Below the pieces are notes generated by a model. The model did no database searches and was not told the origin of the DNA. It worked only from the letters and a program-made list of their open reading frames with translations. From the NCBI GenBank assembly GCA_014860355.1, contig JACZJV010000062.1:759-64758 (forward strand): 64,000 bases of DNA, written 5' to 3'. The number at the start of each line of letters is the position of its first letter. Positions within the stretch are counted from its first letter, which is position 1. Positions 17,044 through 26,599 of the stretch are shown in pieces. A program made the translations under genes and the position numbers. Origin of the DNA: Burkholderiales bacterium (GTDB taxonomy: Bacteria; Pseudomonadota; Gammaproteobacteria; Burkholderiales; SG8-39).

Positions 17044-17119
17044 GCGGCAGTAGCTCAGTTGGTAGAGCGCAACCTTGCCAAGGTTGAGGTCGAGAGTTCG
17101 AGACTCTTCTGCCGCTCCA
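17044..17119 (+). tRNA. tRNA-Gly (anticodon GCC)
   Basis: 76 nt. Acceptor GCGGCAG/CTGCCGC, D-arm AGCTCAGTTGGTAGAGC, anticodon loop CTTGCCAAG, T-arm GGTTCGAG-like (GAGTTCGAGACTC), encoded CCA. Confidence 0.93.
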
Positions 17120-17223: not shown

Positions 17224-17297
17224 GGCGGGATGGCAGAGTGGTCATGCAGCGGCCTGCAAAGCCGTGTACGCCGGTTCGATTCCGACTCCCGCCTCCA
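17224..17297 (+). tRNA. tRNA-Cys (anticodon GCA)
   Basis: 74 nt. Acceptor GGCGGGA/TCCCGCC, anticodon loop CCTGCAAAG, T-loop GGTTCGATTCC, encoded CCA. Confidence 0.93.
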
Positions 17298-18740: not shown

Positions 18741-21700
18741 CTAACGTTTGAATACGACCACGCCTGAAGCGGTGACTGCGGCTGGATTAGAGGATGTGTT
18801 GCCGCCGTGATTGAGCGAGTAAGCCATGCCCACGCCATTTCCGGTCTGCCCGGTAAATCCGCCGACCAGCGAGCCGGAGGTGTCGGCAGGGTTGGCCCCG
18901 AGGGACGTAGTTACGGTCATCGAACCGATGGTGTCGCCGAGTTTCTTCCCGGCCTGGAAGACATTGGCGCTGATCGGAATTCCGGTTGCGCTTGCGCCCC
19001 AGGTGTTGCCCCCGACCGTCAAATTGCTGAGCGTGGCATTGACTGTCTGCGCGGTGAAATTCGCCGTCAGGCTGGCGTTCGCAGCCGTCAGTGCCGCGCC
19101 CACGTTGCCGTTGCTGTCGACCGGGGAGGTGCCGCCTGCGAAGGTGTAGTTGAACGTTCCGGTGATCGGCAGCACGGTCGGCCCCGACTGACTGCCGCTG
19201 ATGACGAAAGGCACGCTCTGGGTTGCCGCGACCACGCCCAGCGAGGCGCCGCTGATGCGGTCGGTGACGCCGATGGTGCCGTTGCCGTAGCGGCCCCAGC
19301 GCATGCCGGTGGCGGGATCGTAACCCGCCTCGAGCACGGTTGCGGTTCCGACCGACGCGGCACCGGTCGCGCCGGCGACGGCGTAGACGACCGGAATATC
19401 GTTTACGAACGAGCAGTTAGTCGTGCATGGAGGCCCGTTGACTACCAGTACCGGCAGTTGCCCGTCCATCCTGACCGGGAGATTGTTGACGAACTGGGTC
19501 CGGTACGCCGACAGGAAGCCGCCGTCTATGCGGGTGTTTTCGCTGGGTTCCAACTCGCCTAGCAGCGTCATGCCCGGTACATTCAGGGCGAGATGGTACG
19601 GGGTCAGCGTGCTATAGGGCGTACCGTTCAAACTGAAGGCAAGCGCCCCGCTTGCGGTTTCGGTAGGGCAAGGACCGGAGGTGCAGGGGAGGAAGCCGTT
19701 CAGGTTGTAGGTAACCCCCGCGCCGCCGGCGCCGATGCCCATAAGCTGGCCCTCCATGGTGCCGAAGGTACCGGTGCTGCCGGTCAAGGTAATATTCATG
19801 TTGTCGTGCGAGCTGGTCGGCTGCACGGTAGTGCCTGAGGCTATGGTGGCGCCCGAATTTCCGGCGTTGGCGTGGAACGAGCCTTCCTGATCCAGACGGA
19901 TGCCGGGAGCGGAAACGACCCAGTTGCCCGCCGGCGTGGTCGCCTGCATATCGAAATTGACCGACGCGTTGCCAAAGTTGACCGTCAGCCCTGCAGAATT
20001 GACAGTGCCGATGGCGCCGTTCTGGTCGTGCAAAACCGAGGTGCCAAGATTATAGGTGGCGGTTCCCGGCACGACCACGCCGGTTGAATTGGTATAGCCT
20101 GCAATTGCGCCCGGCAGATAGATGGGGAAGGGCGCGGGCCCCCTGACCCAGGACAGGCCGTCACCAAGGACGGTTCGCGGTACTGGGTCCACGCATCCTG
20201 TGGTACCGAAGCAACCGTTGAAATCGACGCCGCTCACGGTCAGCGTCGGCGACGGCGACTGCCAACCGAGTAAAATGCTGCCATCGGTCGCGGTCGCAGT
20301 GCTTCCTATGGCAAGTGCCGTCGGCGTTGCGGGAGTCGCCGTGCCGCCGGACAATGCCAGTGCGCGATTGTCGCCAAACACCGAGGAATCACCCGGTTCC
20401 GTAATCGATACCAGATTCCCCGCCGCATCCGTCACCAGGCTGGTTTGCGGACGATCTGTCCAGAAGTTTCCGCTACTGCTCTGGTTGAACGAGTTGATTG
20501 CGTCAAAGTACGAGTACGTCGCGACTACCGTTACCGGGGCGACCGGTGCCGCTACGGGATAGGAGGCGCTCGTCGGAAGCACGATCTCGGGTCCCAGTTT
20601 GAATGCTACCAGTCCATTGATGTAGTCATCGACGACGCGACCCGCGGGTGGCGTAACTGCGTTCACCCCATAATTCGTATTGAAGGTGTAGCGGAAGAAT
20701 GCGCCATCGGCCGTTCCCGCATTGCCGGTCGCGCTGTCGAAACCGCCGCGTATGCGCCCGCCGTAGGCCGATACGCCGGTCGCTATATCGGGCGCACAGC
20801 CGCTGCCGAAACAGCCGATGTGCAGGTTGTCGGTGCCGGCAGGGTTGTTGGACGCGCCGCTGCTCACGTTAAATCCGCCGTTTGAAATCGGCGCATTGTC
20901 GAAGCGCGCGCTCAGGTTTTGGATCCCCAGCGATCCCGCAGGACCGCTGGGCATGGTGATTCTGACCGCGGCGCTCGCCTTGCTGTTGGTAAAGTCGGCG
21001 CTCAGGCGCGCGCCGTCCAGCGTTCCGACATTGCCGTAGCTGTCGGTCGGTGCGGTCGCGAACGACGGCGCGCCCGCGGCATCGCCGATGCGCGTGTACT
21101 GAAACACGCCCGTCAGCGGCAGCGAACTCGGTATCTGCGCCACGACCCACTGCAGGCTGCGTGCGGCGCCATCCGGGGCCAGCAGCGACTCGACGTAGCT
21201 GGTGCCGGTCGACAAATCGGTCACGTTGACGGCGCCGCCGCTCCAGCGCCCGAAGCGGATGCTGGTGGCAGGGTCAAAGTAGCTCTCGGCAGCTGTTCCG
21301 CCGCTGAACGATAGCCGCGCGTGCGCGAGCGGGGTGGGGATGGCGAACTGTGTCCGGCTTCCCGGGACATCATTCGCATGGTCGAAAACCACGTGCGGCG
21401 TATCGAGTACGCCGATCAGGTTGCCGCTGGTATCGAACAGGAAATTCGTGTTGACCGTCGATCCGGTTAGCGTTACCGGCGTAGTCGACGGTGTAGTCAG
21501 CGGTGTGTCCGGCGTCCCGGTCGCATTGTTGAACAGGTTTGAACTGGTCTTGTCGCTGACGATATAGGTGGTGACCGCCGGGTCGACCCCGGGGGCAATC
21601 TGGGTGGTGTCCCACAGCACCTCATTGCGCAGCACGGCTGTACTGGAAAAATTGGTTACTACCACGGTAGGCACGTCGACTACCGGAATAGTGCTGCCGT

Positions 21701-22622
21701 CCGGAGGTGTCACGGTCGACCCGGTCAAATCCAGGGTCGCACCGGCTGCTCCGGTTGCCGTCAGCGCTACTACAGGTGCGGAAGCTGTCGGCGAGACGGG
21801 TATGGGTGATGCGGCCGGCGCGGTGGCGGTGGCACTGGCCGGATCGACCACTGCCGTATCCCGAATCTCCCCCGTAGCCTCCGCGGCTTGCTCGCCAGGC
21901 GCCGCCGCCGCTGTTTCCTGTTGTCCTCCCTCCTTGGATTCCTCCTTGGCTTTTTGTGTTCCTGGCTCCGGCGTCGGTTTATAGAAAGGCGGAATCTTCG
22001 GCAGGATCACGGGCGCGGCCCTGGTCACCGGCGCGAACCCCACCTGGTTGGGCTGTATGTCTATGCTGCCGGCATCGTTGCGGATGAAAGCAACTCCGAC
22101 GTTGACTTTGTCGTAGCTGCCGGGCTCGGCGACGGATGTCTGCCCAGGTGCCGGCGCCAGAATTACCATGGGTTCGTGGTCCGTGCCGCGAATGCCGATG
22201 GTGGCAGTAGCCGTTTTTATCAGATAGTTCTGCTTGTTGGTGCGTCCGATGAAGCCGGTGATGGTGCGAAAACCGCCCCGCAACAGCGAAACGACGGCGC
22301 TTTCCTGGCCGTCCTCCTTGCCGCTGTAGCGGTAGGTATCGAAGCCCATGTCGGTGTTGGGCCGGATCGCGATGAATCCGCCATCGACCATCTTTATCTG
22401 CGCGGAAGAACTCGCGGCTGTGACTATCCTGTCACCTTCATTTACTTCGTCGCCTTTATTCAAGGCGCGCGTTTCACCCGCCTTGGTGACGAGCTTGACG
22501 TCGCCGATCACGAATTGCACGTTGCCGGCTGCGCCGAATGCAGCGCCCGCATAGGCGGCGAGCAGCAGCAGAGCGGGGAGGGCCTTGAGCGGATTTTTCC
22601 AGGAAAACAGCATGGCGTTCAC
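18741..22622 (-). CDS. giant secreted protein: signal peptide + FecR-type domain + P/A/E linker + three TbpB-like beta-barrel modules (putative Slam/T11SS cargo)
   Basis: 1293 aa. Sec signal LLLLAAYAGAAFG/AAG has no lipobox Cys. Residues ~33-200 (GNVQFVIGDVKL...GDRIVT...ATIGIRGTDH) resemble a FecR domain. The rest is Thr/Ser/Gly/Asn/Ala-rich. The C-terminus GSLVGGFTGQTGNGVGMAYSLNH...ASGVVVFKR resembles the terminal strands of TbpB/fHbp barrels. A 12-nt gap separates it from the upstream OMP gene. Confidence 0.8.
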   Translation of the reverse strand: MNAMLFSWKNPLKALPALLLLAAYAGAAFGAAGNVQFVIGDVKLVTKAGETRALNKGDEVNEGDRIVTAASSSAQIKMVDGGFIAIRPNTDMGFDTYRYSGKEDGQESAVVSLLRGGFRTITGFIGRTNKQNYLIKTATATIGIRGTDHEPMVILAPAPGQTSVAEPGSYDKVNVGVAFIRNDAGSIDIQPNQVGFAPVTRAAPVILPKIPPFYKPTPEPGTQKAKEESKEGGQQETAAAAPGEQAAEATGEIRDTAVVDPASATATAPAASPIPVSPTASAPVVALTATGAAGATLDLTGSTVTPPDGSTIPVVDVPTVVVTNFSSTAVLRNEVLWDTTQIAPGVDPAVTTYIVSDKTSSNLFNNATGTPDTPLTTPSTTPVTLTGSTVNTNFLFDTSGNLIGVLDTPHVVFDHANDVPGSRTQFAIPTPLAHARLSFSGGTAAESYFDPATSIRFGRWSGGAVNVTDLSTGTSYVESLLAPDGAARSLQWVVAQIPSSLPLTGVFQYTRIGDAAGAPSFATAPTDSYGNVGTLDGARLSADFTNSKASAAVRITMPSGPAGSLGIQNLSARFDNAPISNGGFNVSSGASNNPAGTDNLHIGCFGSGCAPDIATGVSAYGGRIRGGFDSATGNAGTADGAFFRYTFNTNYGVNAVTPPAGRVVDDYINGLVAFKLGPEIVLPTSASYPVAAPVAPVTVVATYSYFDAINSFNQSSSGNFWTDRPQTSLVTDAAGNLVSITEPGDSSVFGDNRALALSGGTATPATPTALAIGSTATATDGSILLGWQSPSPTLTVSGVDFNGCFGTTGCVDPVPRTVLGDGLSWVRGPAPFPIYLPGAIAGYTNSTGVVVPGTATYNLGTSVLHDQNGAIGTVNSAGLTVNFGNASVNFDMQATTPAGNWVVSAPGIRLDQEGSFHANAGNSGATIASGTTVQPTSSHDNMNITLTGSTGTFGTMEGQLMGIGAGGAGVTYNLNGFLPCTSGPCPTETASGALAFSLNGTPYSTLTPYHLALNVPGMTLLGELEPSENTRIDGGFLSAYRTQFVNNLPVRMDGQLPVLVVNGPPCTTNCSFVNDIPVVYAVAGATGAASVGTATVLEAGYDPATGMRWGRYGNGTIGVTDRISGASLGVVAATQSVPFVISGSQSGPTVLPITGTFNYTFAGGTSPVDSNGNVGAALTAANASLTANFTAQTVNATLSNLTVGGNTWGASATGIPISANVFQAGKKLGDTIGSMTVTTSLGANPADTSGSLVGGFTGQTGNGVGMAYSLNHGGNTSSNPAAVTASGVVVFKR

Positions 22623-22634
22623 CTTGTGCGAAAA

Positions 22635-23984
22635 TTATTTGAAGTCGCGGCGGATCGAAATCGAAATGTCGGTGCGGTCGAACTGGTACAGCACGATATT
22701 GGAGTTGTTGCGTATGTAGGAGACCTGCGGGCGTATCGTCCACAGCTTGTCGTAGTGCCAGTTGACGCCGATGTTGGCGTCATATTGGTTGTCGTCGCGG
22801 AACACCGGCTGGGCGGGCGTGCTGAATGAAGCATTGGCCAGATCGTACTTGCTGAACTGTGCGCCGACGCCGGCGAAGAGTTCGGTTCTCTGGTTGAGTT
22901 GCACCTGTCCACCCAGACGCAGGCCGCTGAAGTCCTTGCCGCCGTCGGCGCGCAACGGTGCGCGCTCGTTCCCGGTAAACAGGCTGGCGAACACCAGGCC
23001 CTTGCCGTCGTTGATCACGCGCAGCCAATTGGCGCCGAACAAGGATTGATCGAAGTCATTGACGCTGATCGTGGGTTCGAAGCGGTAACTCGCGTACTGC
23101 CCGAACGCGCTCACCTGGTTGGCAGGGTTGAGCAGATAACGCCATTCCGCGTTGACGCCGCTGGTGTCGCGGTTGTTCTTCCCGTCCAGATCGTATTTTC
23201 CGCCGAGCACGCCGAGGCGGAACATATTCGTAGTCTGGCCCACGGCGATGCCGGCGCGCGCGTCGACGCTGAGGGAATCAAATGTGTCCTGGGTGTTGTT
23301 GCTGCGGCCGCGTACGTCAGCGCCGGCAAAAAGGCCGAAGTTCGAATTGACCCGGTGGCTGATCTCGCCGCCGAGCCCCAGGCCCAGATAGCTGTCTGCG
23401 GTCTTGACGCCGGTCGGATCGAGGATGAAAACCAGGTCGCCCAGAGCCGGCACCGCTATCGAACTATTGCTGGTGGCGTAATTGATGTTGCTGTCGTGGC
23501 CCCAGGTGCCTTCGATATAGCCTGTGGCGACGGTTTTCTTGGCGTCTTCGTGCTTGTCGATCAATGCGAGGTAGTTGTCTATGAGCTTCTTGGCCGCCGG
23601 CGGCGGTTTTTGCGTCAGCACAGTTTCGAATTCAGCCTTGGCGCGGGTGTAGTCGCCCAATTGATAATAGGCGCGCCCCATGTCTATGCGTGCGCCGGCG
23701 AAATTGGGGTCGACTGCCAGTACGCGCTCGAAGGCGATCGTGGCTTTGTCCGGCTTGCCGCTGTCCAATGCAGCTACGCCCAGGAGGTAGTCGAACTTGA
23801 TGTTGCCGGCCTGTGCGAACTCGAACGGTTCGAGCAGGGAATACGCTTCGGCCGCTTTTCCCTGTTTGAGCAGCGCGTTCGCCTTGTCCAGATCGGCCTC
23901 CGCTGCAAGCACGGAATTTGCCGCCACCCACAAACAGAACCCCAGGGCAAGCAAGGTCCGCCTGACCGAAAATAAATTCGTCAT
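22635..23984 (-). CDS. outer-membrane TPR + beta-barrel protein with Slam/DUF560 (type XI secretion translocon) architecture
   Basis: 449 aa from ATG 23984, with GGAG 11 nt upstream. The ORF is open to 24056. Signal peptide LLALGFCLWVAANSVLA/AE. About 120 aa of TPR repeats (AEAYSLLEP..., ATIAFERVLAVDPNFAGARIDMGRAYYQLGDYTRAKAEFETVL). Then ~300 aa of alternating amphipathic strands with G/N/D turns, ending ISISIRRDFK. The family call rests on architecture and size, not on a search. Confidence 0.6.
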   Translation of the reverse strand: MTNLFSVRRTLLALGFCLWVAANSVLAAEADLDKANALLKQGKAAEAYSLLEPFEFAQAGNIKFDYLLGVAALDSGKPDKATIAFERVLAVDPNFAGARIDMGRAYYQLGDYTRAKAEFETVLTQKPPPAAKKLIDNYLALIDKHEDAKKTVATGYIEGTWGHDSNINYATSNSSIAVPALGDLVFILDPTGVKTADSYLGLGLGGEISHRVNSNFGLFAGADVRGRSNNTQDTFDSLSVDARAGIAVGQTTNMFRLGVLGGKYDLDGKNNRDTSGVNAEWRYLLNPANQVSAFGQYASYRFEPTISVNDFDQSLFGANWLRVINDGKGLVFASLFTGNERAPLRADGGKDFSGLRLGGQVQLNQRTELFAGVGAQFSKYDLANASFSTPAQPVFRDDNQYDANIGVNWHYDKLWTIRPQVSYIRNNSNIVLYQFDRTDISISIRRDFK

Positions 23985-24064
23985 GAATTTCCTACTCCCA
24001 GCGCTTGGTCTTGGACGGGTCGATAAGACCCATTTGTTCCGAATGCGAAAGCGCATGCCAATGA

Positions 24065-24081
24065 TTGATATCCGATATCAA
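24065..24081. promoter_or_regulatory. perfect 8-1-8 inverted repeat TTGATATC-c-GATATCAA; candidate Fur-family operator upstream of the Slam-like operon
   Basis: Read directly. It lies 81-97 nt upstream of the ATG at 23984, inside a ~190-bp AT-rich spacer. The inner TGATATCcGATATCA matches 10 of 14 positions of the Fur 7-1-7 core TGATAATnATTATCA. Confidence 0.4.
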
Positions 24082-24248: not shown

Positions 24249-24338
24249 GCCAGGGTGGTGAAATTGGTATACACAGCGGGCTTAAAACCCGCCGCCGCTA
24301 ATCCCGGCATGCCGGTTCGACCCCGGTCCCTGGCACCA
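24249..24338 (+). tRNA. tRNA-Leu (anticodon UAA), long variable arm
   Basis: 90 nt. Acceptor GCCAGGG/CCCTGGC, D-arm GGTGAAATTGGTA, anticodon stem GCGGG/CCCGC with loop CTTAAAA, variable arm GCCG-ctaatcc-CGGC, T-arm GCCGGTTCGACCCCGGT, encoded CCA. Confidence 0.9.
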
Positions 24339-25172: not shown

Positions 25173-25805
25173 CTATTCCTTCGCTCCCGCCTGCCTGAGC
25201 AAGTCCGCGATATCGGTATTCCCGCCCTTTAGCGCCCATCCCAGGGCCGTAGCGCCCGAATCGCTTCTGATATTCGGATCCGCCACCTCCCACAACAGCA
25301 GCCTGACTGTCTCGAGTCGACCATAGCGGGCGGCCATCATCAGCGCCGACACGCCGCTGGGCGCAAGCGCGTCGATTTCCGCGCCTTTTTCCAGGAGAAA
25401 TTTGACCATGTCGGTGTGACCGCGCCAGGCGGCGTAAATCAAGGGGTTCCAGCCCTGGACATTGATCTGCGCGCCATGGGCCACCAGCAACTCGACCAGT
25501 TCCAGGCTGCCGCTGGCTGCCGCGAGCATGAGTGCCGTCTCCCCGTAACGGTTGCGGGCGTTGACCTTGGCCTGCAGTCGCAGCAGGTATTCGGCCATCT
25601 CGGTTTGGCCCTCCTTGACCGCGAGCATAAGCAAGGTGTGGCCTTCGGGATCGCTGGTGTTCACGTCGATGCCCTTTGCAAACAGGGCCTCGGCCGTCGA
25701 AAGATCGTTCAACTTTACCGCGTTGAGGATGTCGTCATAGGACTCCGCGAGCGCGCTTGTACTCTGAAGGGACAAAAACACAATAATGCATAATCTCAAT
25801 AACAT
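25173..25805 (-). CDS. periplasmic ankyrin-repeat protein
   Basis: Signal peptide MLLRLCIIVFLSLQSTSALA/E from ATG 25805. An alternative TTG at 25826 overlaps the tatD stop. Five to six ankyrin repeats (G.T.LM.A...G....V..LL..GA..N). Confidence 0.8.
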   Translation of the reverse strand: MLLRLCIIVFLSLQSTSALAESYDDILNAVKLNDLSTAEALFAKGIDVNTSDPEGHTLLMLAVKEGQTEMAEYLLRLQAKVNARNRYGETALMLAAASGSLELVELLVAHGAQINVQGWNPLIYAAWRGHTDMVKFLLEKGAEIDALAPSGVSALMMAARYGRLETVRLLLWEVADPNIRSDSGATALGWALKGGNTDIADLLRQAGAKE

Positions 25806-25822
25806 ATCATTCTTTATTAATG

Positions 25823-26599
25823 TCAATCCTTACTAATGGAAGGTTTGAATAATCGGAAGAAATTCGCAGTCGTCGCCGCCGCCACCGCTTCCAGGGAGGT
25901 TTCGCGCAAACGGGCGATTTCCTCTGCCACATGCCTGACCCAGCCCGGCTCGTTGGTTTTCCCGCGGTGCGGTACCGGAGCAAGATAGGGGGAATCGGTT
26001 TCCACCAGCATGCGCTCCAGCGGTATCGCTTTGGCCACCTCCTTGATGGAATGGGCGTTCTTGAAGGTGACTATGCCGGAAAAGGAGATATAGAAATCCA
26101 TATCCATGGCCGCCAGCGCAAACTCCATGGTTTCGGTGAAGCAATGCATTACCCCGCCTATCTCGCCGGCGCGTTCTTCGCGCAGGATGCGCAAAGTGTC
26201 GTCGCCGGCGTCCCGCGTATGGATGATCAATGGCTTGCCACAATCGCGCGCGGCCCGGATGTGGGTGCGAAAGCGCGCCTTTTGCCATTCGAGCTCGCCC
26301 TCCTGGCGATAGTAGTCCAGGCCGGTTTCGCCAATGGCGACGATTCTGGGGTGCTGCGCGCGCTCGAGCAGGTCCCCGAGCCCGGGACTGGCATCGTCGG
26401 CCTGGTCCGGATGCACTCCGACCGAGGCGTACAGCTGCGCATGGCCTTCCGCCAGAGCCAGGACGCGTGGAAAATCAGCGAGATTGACGGATACACACAG
26501 GGCATGTGTCACCTGATTCTGCGCCATGCCCTCGAGAATCTGCGGGATGCGATCGGCATATTGCTCGAAATCGATATGGCAATGCGAATCGACCAGCAT
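25823..26599 (-). CDS. tatD: TatD-family metal-dependent hydrolase/DNase
   Basis: 258 aa. MLVDSHCHIDF, GETGLDY, IHTRDA and ETDSPYLAP motifs. Confidence 0.9.
   Translation of the reverse strand: MLVDSHCHIDFEQYADRIPQILEGMAQNQVTHALCVSVNLADFPRVLALAEGHAQLYASVGVHPDQADDASPGLGDLLERAQHPRIVAIGETGLDYYRQEGELEWQKARFRTHIRAARDCGKPLIIHTRDAGDDTLRILREERAGEIGGVMHCFTETMEFALAAMDMDFYISFSGIVTFKNAHSIKEVAKAIPLERMLVETDSPYLAPVPHRGKTNEPGWVRHVAEEIARLRETSLEAVAAATTANFFRLFKPSISKD

Follow-up and report, generated by a model that had tools for sequence, protein, structure and literature searches.

Slam1, an outer-membrane protein of the Slam/DUF560 (type 11 secretion) family, acts autonomously as a translocon of unfolded TbpB when reconstituted and, in the model proposed by the authors, a C-terminal specificity motif of the cargo is recognized and the lipid anchor comes last (PMC9090332). 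Soluble (non-lipidated) type 11 cargo has also been established (PMC8406197), and predicted type 11 cargo with several barrels has been described from Sphingomonas and Psychrobacter (PMC12282271). So far, animal-associated bacteria, with their small lipoproteins and hemophores, are the only setting in which type 11 secretion has been tested and, according to the authors of a survey of the family, nine of ten DUF560 sequence clusters, from organisms living mostly in water and soil, are without a characterized protein (PMC8406197). The present analysis deals with two adjacent minus-strand genes found in 64,000 nucleotides of DNA of an uncultured groundwater Burkholderiales bacterium (contig JACZJV010000062.1 of assembly GCA_014860355.1; the whole stretch is the window, and positions are given in its numbering). 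The upstream gene encodes an outer-membrane protein (OMP) that belongs to the Slam/DUF560 family; the downstream gene encodes a giant protein, here called the partner, with a FecR-type domain at its N-terminus. The pairing of the two is strongly conserved and specific in about 150 related loci, and they probably are a genuine type 11 OMP–substrate pair.

The OMP gene (22635..23984, minus strand) codes for 449 residues plus the stop codon and ends ISISIRRDFK. A preliminary description, made from the letters of the sequence, had taken the product for a signal peptide followed by tetratricopeptide repeats (TPR) and an amphipathic beta region, in the manner of Slam/DUF560 proteins, and had anticipated profile matches to DUF560/Slam and to TPR; both were obtained above the Pfam cutoffs. 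The SlipAM model (PF04575) covers residues 160–448 with practically the whole profile (positions 8–288 of 288; E 3e-12; 47.1 bits versus a cutoff of 22), and TPR_19, TPR_2 and TPR_1 are above cutoff at residues 66–134. The signal peptide (residues 1–27; 23904..23984, minus), cut between ...NSVLA and AEA, was read from the translation and appears as a low-confidence N-terminal helix in the AlphaFold2 (AF2) model, which was built with 39 homologues and has a predicted local distance difference test score (pLDDT) of 90.9. In this model, eight helices lie between residues 32 and 147, defining, together with the Pfam matches, a periplasmic TPR domain (23544..23891, minus). They are followed by the C-terminal beta-barrel (residues 151–449; 22638..23534, minus), for which DSSP gives 14 long strands of 13–18 residues each between residues 151 and 448. 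Homologues of the OMP carry PF04575 and are named by NCBI either ‘DUF560 domain-containing’ or ‘surface lipoprotein assembly modifier’. When the model was compared with the PDB by Foldseek, BcsC (TPR plus barrel) was the top match, with FadL next and CymA further down, both of which are 14-stranded barrels; no Slam structure was present among the top 50 Foldseek matches or in a PDB sequence search with the OMP, which returned TPR matches only.

The conservation of the pair was determined from both sides. The Slam alignment, used to scan one genome per species, led to 80 loci from metagenome-assembled genomes (MAGs) labelled Burkholderiales, Gallionella, Sideroxydans, Ferrigenium, Georgfuchsia, Nitrosomonadales and Rhodospirillaceae, in which 78 Slam genes are followed by a same-strand open reading frame (ORF) with a FecR-type head, three lie at contig ends and five have no partner. 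The alignment of the heads, used to scan metagenomes, led to 88 heads, of which 71 have a Slam directly upstream, 6 are at contig edges and 11 are without it (71 of 82 testable cases). Six of these 11 form a distinct class of 390–510 residues ending DYSKL[QN] or a close variant (L098, L103, L104, L109, L111 and L118), so that the head also exists outside the Slam pairing. Clustering of the ORFs of 161 loci showed that only the Slam and partner families recur (153 and 152 loci, respectively); the next most frequent family was found in 32 loci, due to local synteny, and no gene for a TonB-dependent receptor, a sigma factor, an ATP-binding cassette (ABC) transporter, a membrane-fusion protein, a TolC-like protein or a synthase recurs in this set. 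Some loci contain tandem Slam–partner–Slam–partner arrays and the pair of Ferrigenium kumadai, a cultured iron oxidizer with a complete genome record (AP019536.1, L081), consists of FGKAn22_16820 and the gene upstream of it and is located between radC and purB. The recurrence of just two families, in differing housekeeping contexts, indicates that the module is self-contained and mobile on evolutionary timescales. The question of co-occurrence across genomes, raised in the preliminary description, is thereby answered in the affirmative.

The partner gene (18741..22622, minus strand) codes for 1293 residues if read from a GTG codon, or for 1290 residues from an ATG at 22613, and ends ASGVVVFKR. 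Its N-terminus reads as a Sec signal peptide (residues 1–30; 22533..22622, minus; ...AGAAFG before the cleavage site, AAGNVQF after it), with a basic region, a hydrophobic region and an AFG/AA site, a pattern that is kept in the family alignment; as had been noted at the outset, there is no lipobox, because the first cysteine of the protein is residue 604. The FecR-type head (residues 33–215; 21978..22526, minus) was defined from the Pfam FecR match (PF04773, residues 64–152, 35.3 bits versus a cutoff of 24), which agrees with the initial assignment, and from its similarity to adhesin retention modules. FecR was all that Pfam found in the whole partner, with no RTX repeats. In the partner, neither a cytoplasmic anti-sigma domain nor a transmembrane helix nor a receptor-binding domain at the C-terminus was detected; the cleavable signal peptide leads straight into the head, which leaves no cytoplasmic anti-sigma region and no transmembrane helix. 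It is followed by a low-complexity linker (residues 216–330; 21633..21977, minus; Ala 20%, Thr 16%, Pro 12%) and by a body in which Gly, Ala, Thr and Ser abound, in outline as first described. The linker contains the sequence IRDTAVVD, an instance of the motif [IVL]R[DEGN]x[ASTG][VIAT][VIM][DE] that is found in 46 of 133 complete partners, long and short alike. Also within the linker, residues 235–243 (ETAAAAPGE; window positions approximately 21894–21920, minus), with a Thr and four Ala, resemble the di-alanine target of LapG in adhesins of the LapA type, in a low-complexity context. All eight cysteines of the partner are arranged in four tight pairs, namely, 604/609, 804/810, 980/985 and 1066/1070 (CxxxxC, CxxxxxC, CxxxxC and CxxxC), a spacing which suggests small disulfide loops and an oxidising extracytoplasmic location, although it would not separate the periplasm from the cell surface.

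The remainder of the partner contains three handle-plus-barrel units, which were identified with a hidden Markov model (HMM) built from 53 C-terminal domains. Unit 1 (residues 430–676; 20595..21335, minus) matches this HMM at residues 436–675 with 100 bits and an independent E-value (iE) of 7e-31; unit 2 (residues approximately 770–1000, with the barrel part at 838–997; 19623..20315, minus) at residues 844–996 with 51.6 bits and an iE of 6e-16; and unit 3, the C-terminal one, which ends GVVVFKR (residues 1080–1293; 18744..19385, minus), at residues 1084–1293 with 236 bits. Units 1 and 3 are also directly related to each other according to phmmer (iE 1.6e-7). The AF2 model of residues 1085–1293 (pLDDT 92.5; predicted template modelling score, pTM, 0.86) consists of beta structure throughout, with five strands in the handle and then nine in the barrel region. 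In the Foldseek search of the PDB with unit 3, rank 1 was taken by fHbp (5nqz; probability 1.0, E 3e-3, 206 aligned columns), a verified Slam1 cargo, followed by the C-terminal barrel of NHBA (5o1r; probability 1.0, template modelling (TM) score 0.67 on the target, root mean square deviation 3.9 Å) and by a further fHbp entry (8bk2), with avidins and PsbO ranking behind the fHbp and NHBA structures. The terminal unit is the better conserved type: it scores 200–260 bits as opposed to 30–110 bits for internal units, and it is the last unit in 42 of the 44 complete multi-unit relatives. With the terminal-unit profile, 1,515 clusters (50% identity), 829 of them at E≤1e-10, were found in a library of 1.84 billion representative proteins; short ‘proteins’ among the representative matches were considered as stand-alone barrels and rejected, being gene fragments.

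Partners associated with Slams differ widely in length. The 58 long ones span 795 to about 2,640 residues in the fetched loci, contain two to six units and mostly end GV[AV]AF[KRH][RQ]; the longest in the protein library (P0241) has 3,351 residues. In P0241 (residues approximately 600–1250) and in the partner of locus L047 (11297–13843), an Ala/Thr/Gln/Asn/Ser-rich stretch of several hundred residues is found between the head and the units, and resembles the helical stalk of fibrous adhesins. The 19 partners of intermediate size are about 510–620 residues long, some with a single barrel that is visibly TbpB-like but divergent. Finally, about 30 short partners of 257–316 residues consist of the head and a 50–90-residue tail ending ...VF, ...IF, ...TF or ...EQxH, and their size leaves no room for a barrel. 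Pairs with short partners come mostly from Gallionella or Gallionellaceae MAGs and often occur as two pairs in tandem (examples are L046, 11279–12121; L048, 11265–12170; L053, 11321–12136 and 13792–14709; as well as L061, L069, L075 and others).

By comparing the sequences of Slams with those of their partners, it was found that Slams that are nearest relatives share the partner class in 95% of cases versus 36% after shuffling. In 15 full-length relatives, the head is on average 80% identical to that of the window protein, and every other region 43–64%. Over a set of 42 long pairs, the distances between Slams are correlated with those between heads (r 0.81) and less so with those between C-terminal units (r 0.54); the corresponding partial r values are 0.73 and 0.08.

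A further indication on the head came from profile comparisons. It is matched by the NCBIfam model NF033682 (retention_LapA, ‘retention module-containing protein’) with 35.5 bits over model positions 4–68 of 145, which is below the cutoff of 50, and the heads of 37 of 38 relatives match the same model at E<0.01, with a best value of 5.4e-11. The head profile gave a single match in the PDB, namely, 5IX9 (MpIBP RIN; E 3.4e-4 over 72 residues). This structure is that of the RIN domain, located in the periplasm at the N-terminus of the Marinomonas adhesin MpIBP and proposed to plug a TolC-like pore and so to keep the adhesin attached (PMC5550230); the LapA retention module was modelled on the same structure (bioRxiv 10.1101/198937). 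The likeness of the head to such plugs may be regarded as a lead, not as proof.

Taking these data together, it is proposed that the pair is a self-contained two-gene type 11 (Slam-family) module, in which the partner is displayed while tethered via its own translocon, a proposal for which the balance of probability seems about even. Sec would export the partner into the periplasm, where the FecR-type head, the first part out of Sec, could fold. The conserved C-terminal barrel unit would engage the Slam, and the chain would then thread outward with its C-terminus first, a direction suggested by analogy with the work on Slam1 and TbpB, so that the handle-plus-barrel units would fold outside the cell. 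The head would stay where the Slam opens to the periplasm, with about 100 flexible linker residues lying in the 14-strand pore, thus replacing the lipid anchor of classical Slam cargo or the retention module of the LapA/MpIBP-type adhesins. A partner without lipid must be either released or held by something else, and it is for the latter role that the head is proposed. A tethering head would account for the 1:1 pairing of the genes, for the conservation of the head, for its covariation with the Slam and for the short partners without barrel; this part of the proposal is possible, if on the doubtful side. Put forward more tentatively still is its full form, according to which these are Sec-dependent giant surface proteins with a pre-folded plug at the N-terminus, related to the retention module of LapA and MpIBP, that anchors them in their own Slam barrel, with the Slam specificity of this branch of the family residing in the head instead of the C-terminal barrel and the barrel-less partners acting as dedicated plugs or as minimal displayed peptides. 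As for its biological role, the partner most likely serves in adhesion or in forming a surface matrix in Betaproteobacteria of groundwater and sediment and in iron-oxidizing ones.

Several considerations weigh against this proposal. Translocation, its direction and tethering are all inferences. In characterized type 11 cargo, the N-terminal part is an exposed effector and not a periplasmic anchor (PMC12282271). The OMP does not reach the Slam-specific TPR model PF24575 (TPR_Slam; 14.3 bits versus a cutoff of 35.2), which makes it a divergent member of the family. Concerning the head, the similarity to retention_LapA is confined to the first approximately 65 residues, is below cutoff and involves a motif common to many FecR-type domains; furthermore, the NCBIfam models of Leptospira Lsa33 and LipL45, named by NCBIfam as a surface adhesin and a lipoprotein, respectively, score the head similarly. 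The covariation between Slam and head could arise from linkage of adjoining DNA combined with recombination inside the long gene, with no need of protein contact, since the head-coding DNA adjoins the Slam gene.

With respect to the barrel, the Foldseek search with unit 3 gave no match at E≤1e-3, and TbpB was absent from the top 50. The Pfam TbpB_B_D model (PF01298) had no match at E≤10 in any of the three units of the partner, and a single one, with an E-value of 0.029, across the 53 C-terminal units. The PDB profile search with the C-terminal-unit alignment was empty at E≤10, and hhalign, comparing this alignment with a small one of TbpB (made of PDB fragments together with P0100 and P0102), gave a non-significant P of 0.12. 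The latter two sequences, distant relatives of 1425 and 1427 residues (P0100 is labelled as from a Desulfurivibrionaceae MAG), do contain a canonical TbpB_B_D unit at residues approximately 1009–1140 (51–53 bits), which aligns to the C-lobes of TbpB in the PDB and sits among units of the family type. However, jackhmmer with this unit found only 4 sequences among all those fetched, and a homologue search with the unit of P0100 gave no matches; it is a lineage-specific insert and no bridge between the families. With a fold match and no sequence match, the units are filed as fHbp/NHBA/TbpB-like barrels by predicted fold, outside the Pfam family, so that the link of the partner barrel to TbpB-type barrels is supported at the level of the predicted fold only and is statistically modest. 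Of the TbpB/fHbp-type C-terminal barrel of the preliminary description, the confident handle and up-and-down barrel model and its likeness to fHbp and NHBA have therefore stood, and the expected TbpB_B_D-like profile match alongside that to FecR has not. The additional idea that the barrel is the element recognized by the Slam is weakened as well, since it is the head, and not the barrel, that tracks the Slam, and since barrel-less short partners pair with Slams.

The main rival to the tethered-display proposal is a canonical soluble type 11 secretion, in which the Slam would recognize the C-terminal barrel and the whole protein would, like hemophilin and HrpC, be released or loosely bound to the surface, with the head serving as an exposed effector (e.g. 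a ligand- or mineral-binding tip) conserved for its function. This reading is somewhat unlikely. It fits the characterized cargo, as soluble cargo having a signal-peptidase-I site and a TbpB-type barrel forms an established class (PMC8406197) and known cargo has a variable N-terminal effector with the C-terminal barrel as the proposed targeting domain (PMC12282271); it also agrees with the higher conservation of the terminal unit, both in bit scores and in its position at the end of 42 of 44 multi-unit relatives, and with the matches of the head to the Lsa33 and LipL45 models. It accounts less readily for the conservation of the head and for the short partners: no region of the protein varies less than the head, which is the opposite of a ‘variable effector’ and resembles a known periplasmic plug domain, and the barrel-less short partners keep the Slam pairing in stable subclades. 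The strict 1:1 pairing, including the tandem arrays, is also unexpected for a catalytic translocon, although linkage could explain it.

Alternatively, instead of being cargo, the partner may assist, gate or regulate the OMP from the periplasm, its head docking on the TPR domain or plugging the barrel from below, with something else as the true substrate and the beta-rich domains of the long forms being periplasmic or partly inserted. FecR domains act in the periplasm in FecR/FecA signalling, where they contact outer-membrane proteins, and such a classical location, along with the fact that the head is the common denominator of all Slam partners, short forms included, and covaries with the Slam, would suit this role. 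Nevertheless, it is improbable, because no other candidate substrate gene recurs near the Slams of the 161 loci, the units resemble surface-exposed fHbp/NHBA-type barrels, and a body of 1000–3000 residues made of repeated units, in some cases with Ala/Thr/Gln-rich stretches, looks like an extracellular fibre or adhesin and fits poorly in the periplasm; the four tight cysteine pairs are of little help here, as the oxidising location they suggest may be either compartment. Very improbable is a pairing devoid of functional meaning, or an OMP that is a PgaA/BcsC-like polysaccharide porin next to an unrelated FecR protein or an anti-sigma factor. The top Foldseek rank of BcsC, the weak NCBIfam TPR matches of the OMP to BcsC and PgaA, the fact that PF04575 also matches some PgaA proteins, and the Pfam FecR domain of the partner may point in this direction. 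A porin of this type was rejected given 14 barrel strands, not 16, and the absence of a recurring synthase gene. An anti-sigma factor was rejected as well, since FecR is the only Pfam domain of the partner and heads it right after a cleavable signal peptide, with no cytoplasmic domain or transmembrane helix and with no sigma factor or transducer gene nearby, nor an extracytoplasmic function (ECF) sigma factor or TonB-dependent receptor gene recurring in the 161 loci. Moreover, the adjacency is kept across Burkholderiales, Gallionellaceae and MAGs labelled Rhodospirillaceae in differing gene contexts.

At the level of the locus, both ORFs were found where the preliminary description had placed them. 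Both proteins have exact database matches on one 64,903-nt NCBI contig (‘MAG: Burkholderiales bacterium’), namely, P0121, the 449-residue OMP, named ‘DUF560 domain-containing protein’, and P0001, a ‘FecR domain-containing protein’ of 1290 residues, 100% identical to the partner. Each protein has hundreds of homologues, with 216 of 800–2200 residues for the partner, so that the two are real genes rather than chance ORFs of GC-rich DNA. The sequence between them is TAA-ttttcgcacaag-GTG-aac-gcc-ATG. The 12-nt separation originally reported holds if the GTG at 22622 is used, but the ATG at 22613 is the more likely start, judging from the Shine-Dalgarno-like AAGGTG upstream of it, from the NCBI call of P0001 (MLFSWKN...) and from the MxFSWKN starts of relatives; the intergenic spacer (22614..22634, minus) would then be of 21 nt, a minor correction. 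No sigma-70-like site was found in the promoter scan, with nothing promoter-like between the two genes, and the terminator scan gave matches not clearly above the shuffled expectation, none of them convincing in the spacer. This is consistent with a single operon, and the partner gene is probably co-transcribed with that of the OMP.

Among the neighbours in the window, Pfam identified a major facilitator superfamily (MFS) transporter, an ankyrin-repeat protein and a DUF1178 protein, and tRNA genes are also present; from translations and Pfam, no TonB-dependent receptor is found among the flanking genes, in agreement with the initial reading. Other ORFs of the window were interpreted by eye from their translations as putative uvrC, pgsA, tatD, holB, tmk and mltG. 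A tRNA-Leu(taa) gene (24249–24338, plus) lies 265 nt upstream of the Slam start; downstream of the partner, genes for tRNA-Gly and tRNA-Cys (17044–17119 and 17224–17297, plus) are found just past the MFS transporter gene. The GC content is 0.56–0.60 at 22–26 kb versus approximately 0.64 elsewhere in the window, and the MFS–partner–Slam block may be an insertion between tRNA genes. The ankyrin-repeat gene (25173–25826, minus; Ank_2, 162 bits), two genes upstream of the Slam, encodes an N-terminus that by eye is a signal peptide; an ankyrin-like ORF is seen again in 13 related loci, with synteny among close relatives as the probable cause.

For one environmental branch of the Slams, the partner family provides a concrete, consistently paired candidate substrate, which would likely extend the range of type 11 cargo to 1,000–3,000 residues. 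It also bears on what a Slam recognizes, the conserved element that covaries with it being here the head, and on how non-lipidated cargo stays on the cell. If the head is indeed a plug, a new lipid-free mode of anchoring Slam cargo would be at hand, with the logic of type 1 adhesins operating on a different translocon and a possible use as a display scaffold. If it is not, the partner would still represent a new cargo architecture, abundant in Gallionellaceae, the surface chemistry of which matters for iron biomineralization. In the proteome tables of Sideroxydans lithotrophicus ES-1 (PMC12016527), FecR-domain proteins are listed, including Slit_1471 with 6 peptides, which could not be linked to the partner family. 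The preliminary description had stated that no characterized example of this combination of features was known. Full-text literature searches found no paper linking DUF560/Slam to Gallionellaceae or to FecR-headed cargo; soluble cargo and multi-barrel cargo, as mentioned above, were already known.

In comparison with Slam1 and Slam2 of Neisseria, acting with TbpB, LbpB, fHbp and HpuA, and with NilB/NilC of Xenorhabdus, the present system shares a DUF560/SlipAM OMP made of TPR and a 14-strand barrel, the adjacent partner gene, and a partner predicted to be Sec-exported and to end in a handle and an up-and-down barrel. The partner differs from this cargo by lacking a lipobox, by being 2–5 times larger and by having a FecR-type head and three barrel units (one to six per relative in the fetched loci). 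A TonB-dependent receptor or an iron-regulation context is missing, PF24575 and TbpB_B_D are unmatched and the hosts are free-living groundwater, sediment and iron-oxidizing Betaproteobacteria. The non-lipidated hemophores, i.e. HrpC with its OMP HrpB, hemophilin (Hpl) and HphA, are closer with respect to the signal-peptidase-I site, the adjacent DUF560 OMP and the use of one dedicated OMP per cargo. However, they are small, with a single barrel and a heme-binding handle, and their genes lie beside those for TonB, a receptor and heme oxygenase, whereas the partner is giant and multi-unit, is encoded in no such context and has a conserved rather than variable N-terminal domain. The proteins of Sphingomonas and Psychrobacter with multiple TbpBBD domains also contain several handle–barrel pairs (two or three) and low-complexity, Pro/Thr-rich N-terminal stretches, and some of them are non-lipidated, but they belong to the animal-associated cluster 1 neighbourhoods, their TbpBBD domains are detected by Pfam and no FecR head has been reported for them (PMC12282271). 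In the same study (Grossman et al. 2025), FecR appears beside sigma-70 in a supplementary table of domain co-occurrence and is not part of the ten cargo architectures described (PMC12282271).

Outside type 11 secretion, the FecR/PupR anti-sigma factors share PF04773 above the gathering score, but the partner has none of their cytoplasmic anti-sigma, transmembrane and receptor-binding domains and no ECF sigma factor or TonB-dependent transducer gene nearby; here the domain heads what appears to be a secreted structural protein. The likeness to LapA with LapE of Pseudomonas fluorescens and to MpIBP of Marinomonas primoryensis is more extensive, as it includes a giant modular surface protein, or in the present case a putative one, with conserved termini and a variable middle, a dedicated outer-membrane channel, an N-terminal beta-domain with detectable sequence similarity, a flexible linker after the head and, in both the type 1 secretion system and the Slam model, threading with the C-terminus first. 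The differences are the Sec signal peptide with the periplasmic intermediate that it implies, the 14-strand Slam channel, the lack of RTX repeats as judged by Pfam and of recurring ABC, fusion or TolC-like genes; the similarity of the head is below the curated cutoff, and its retention role would be by analogy. Thus, the translocon is of a known family, and what is new in the system is the head of the partner together with its size and gene context and, possibly, the logic of its anchoring.

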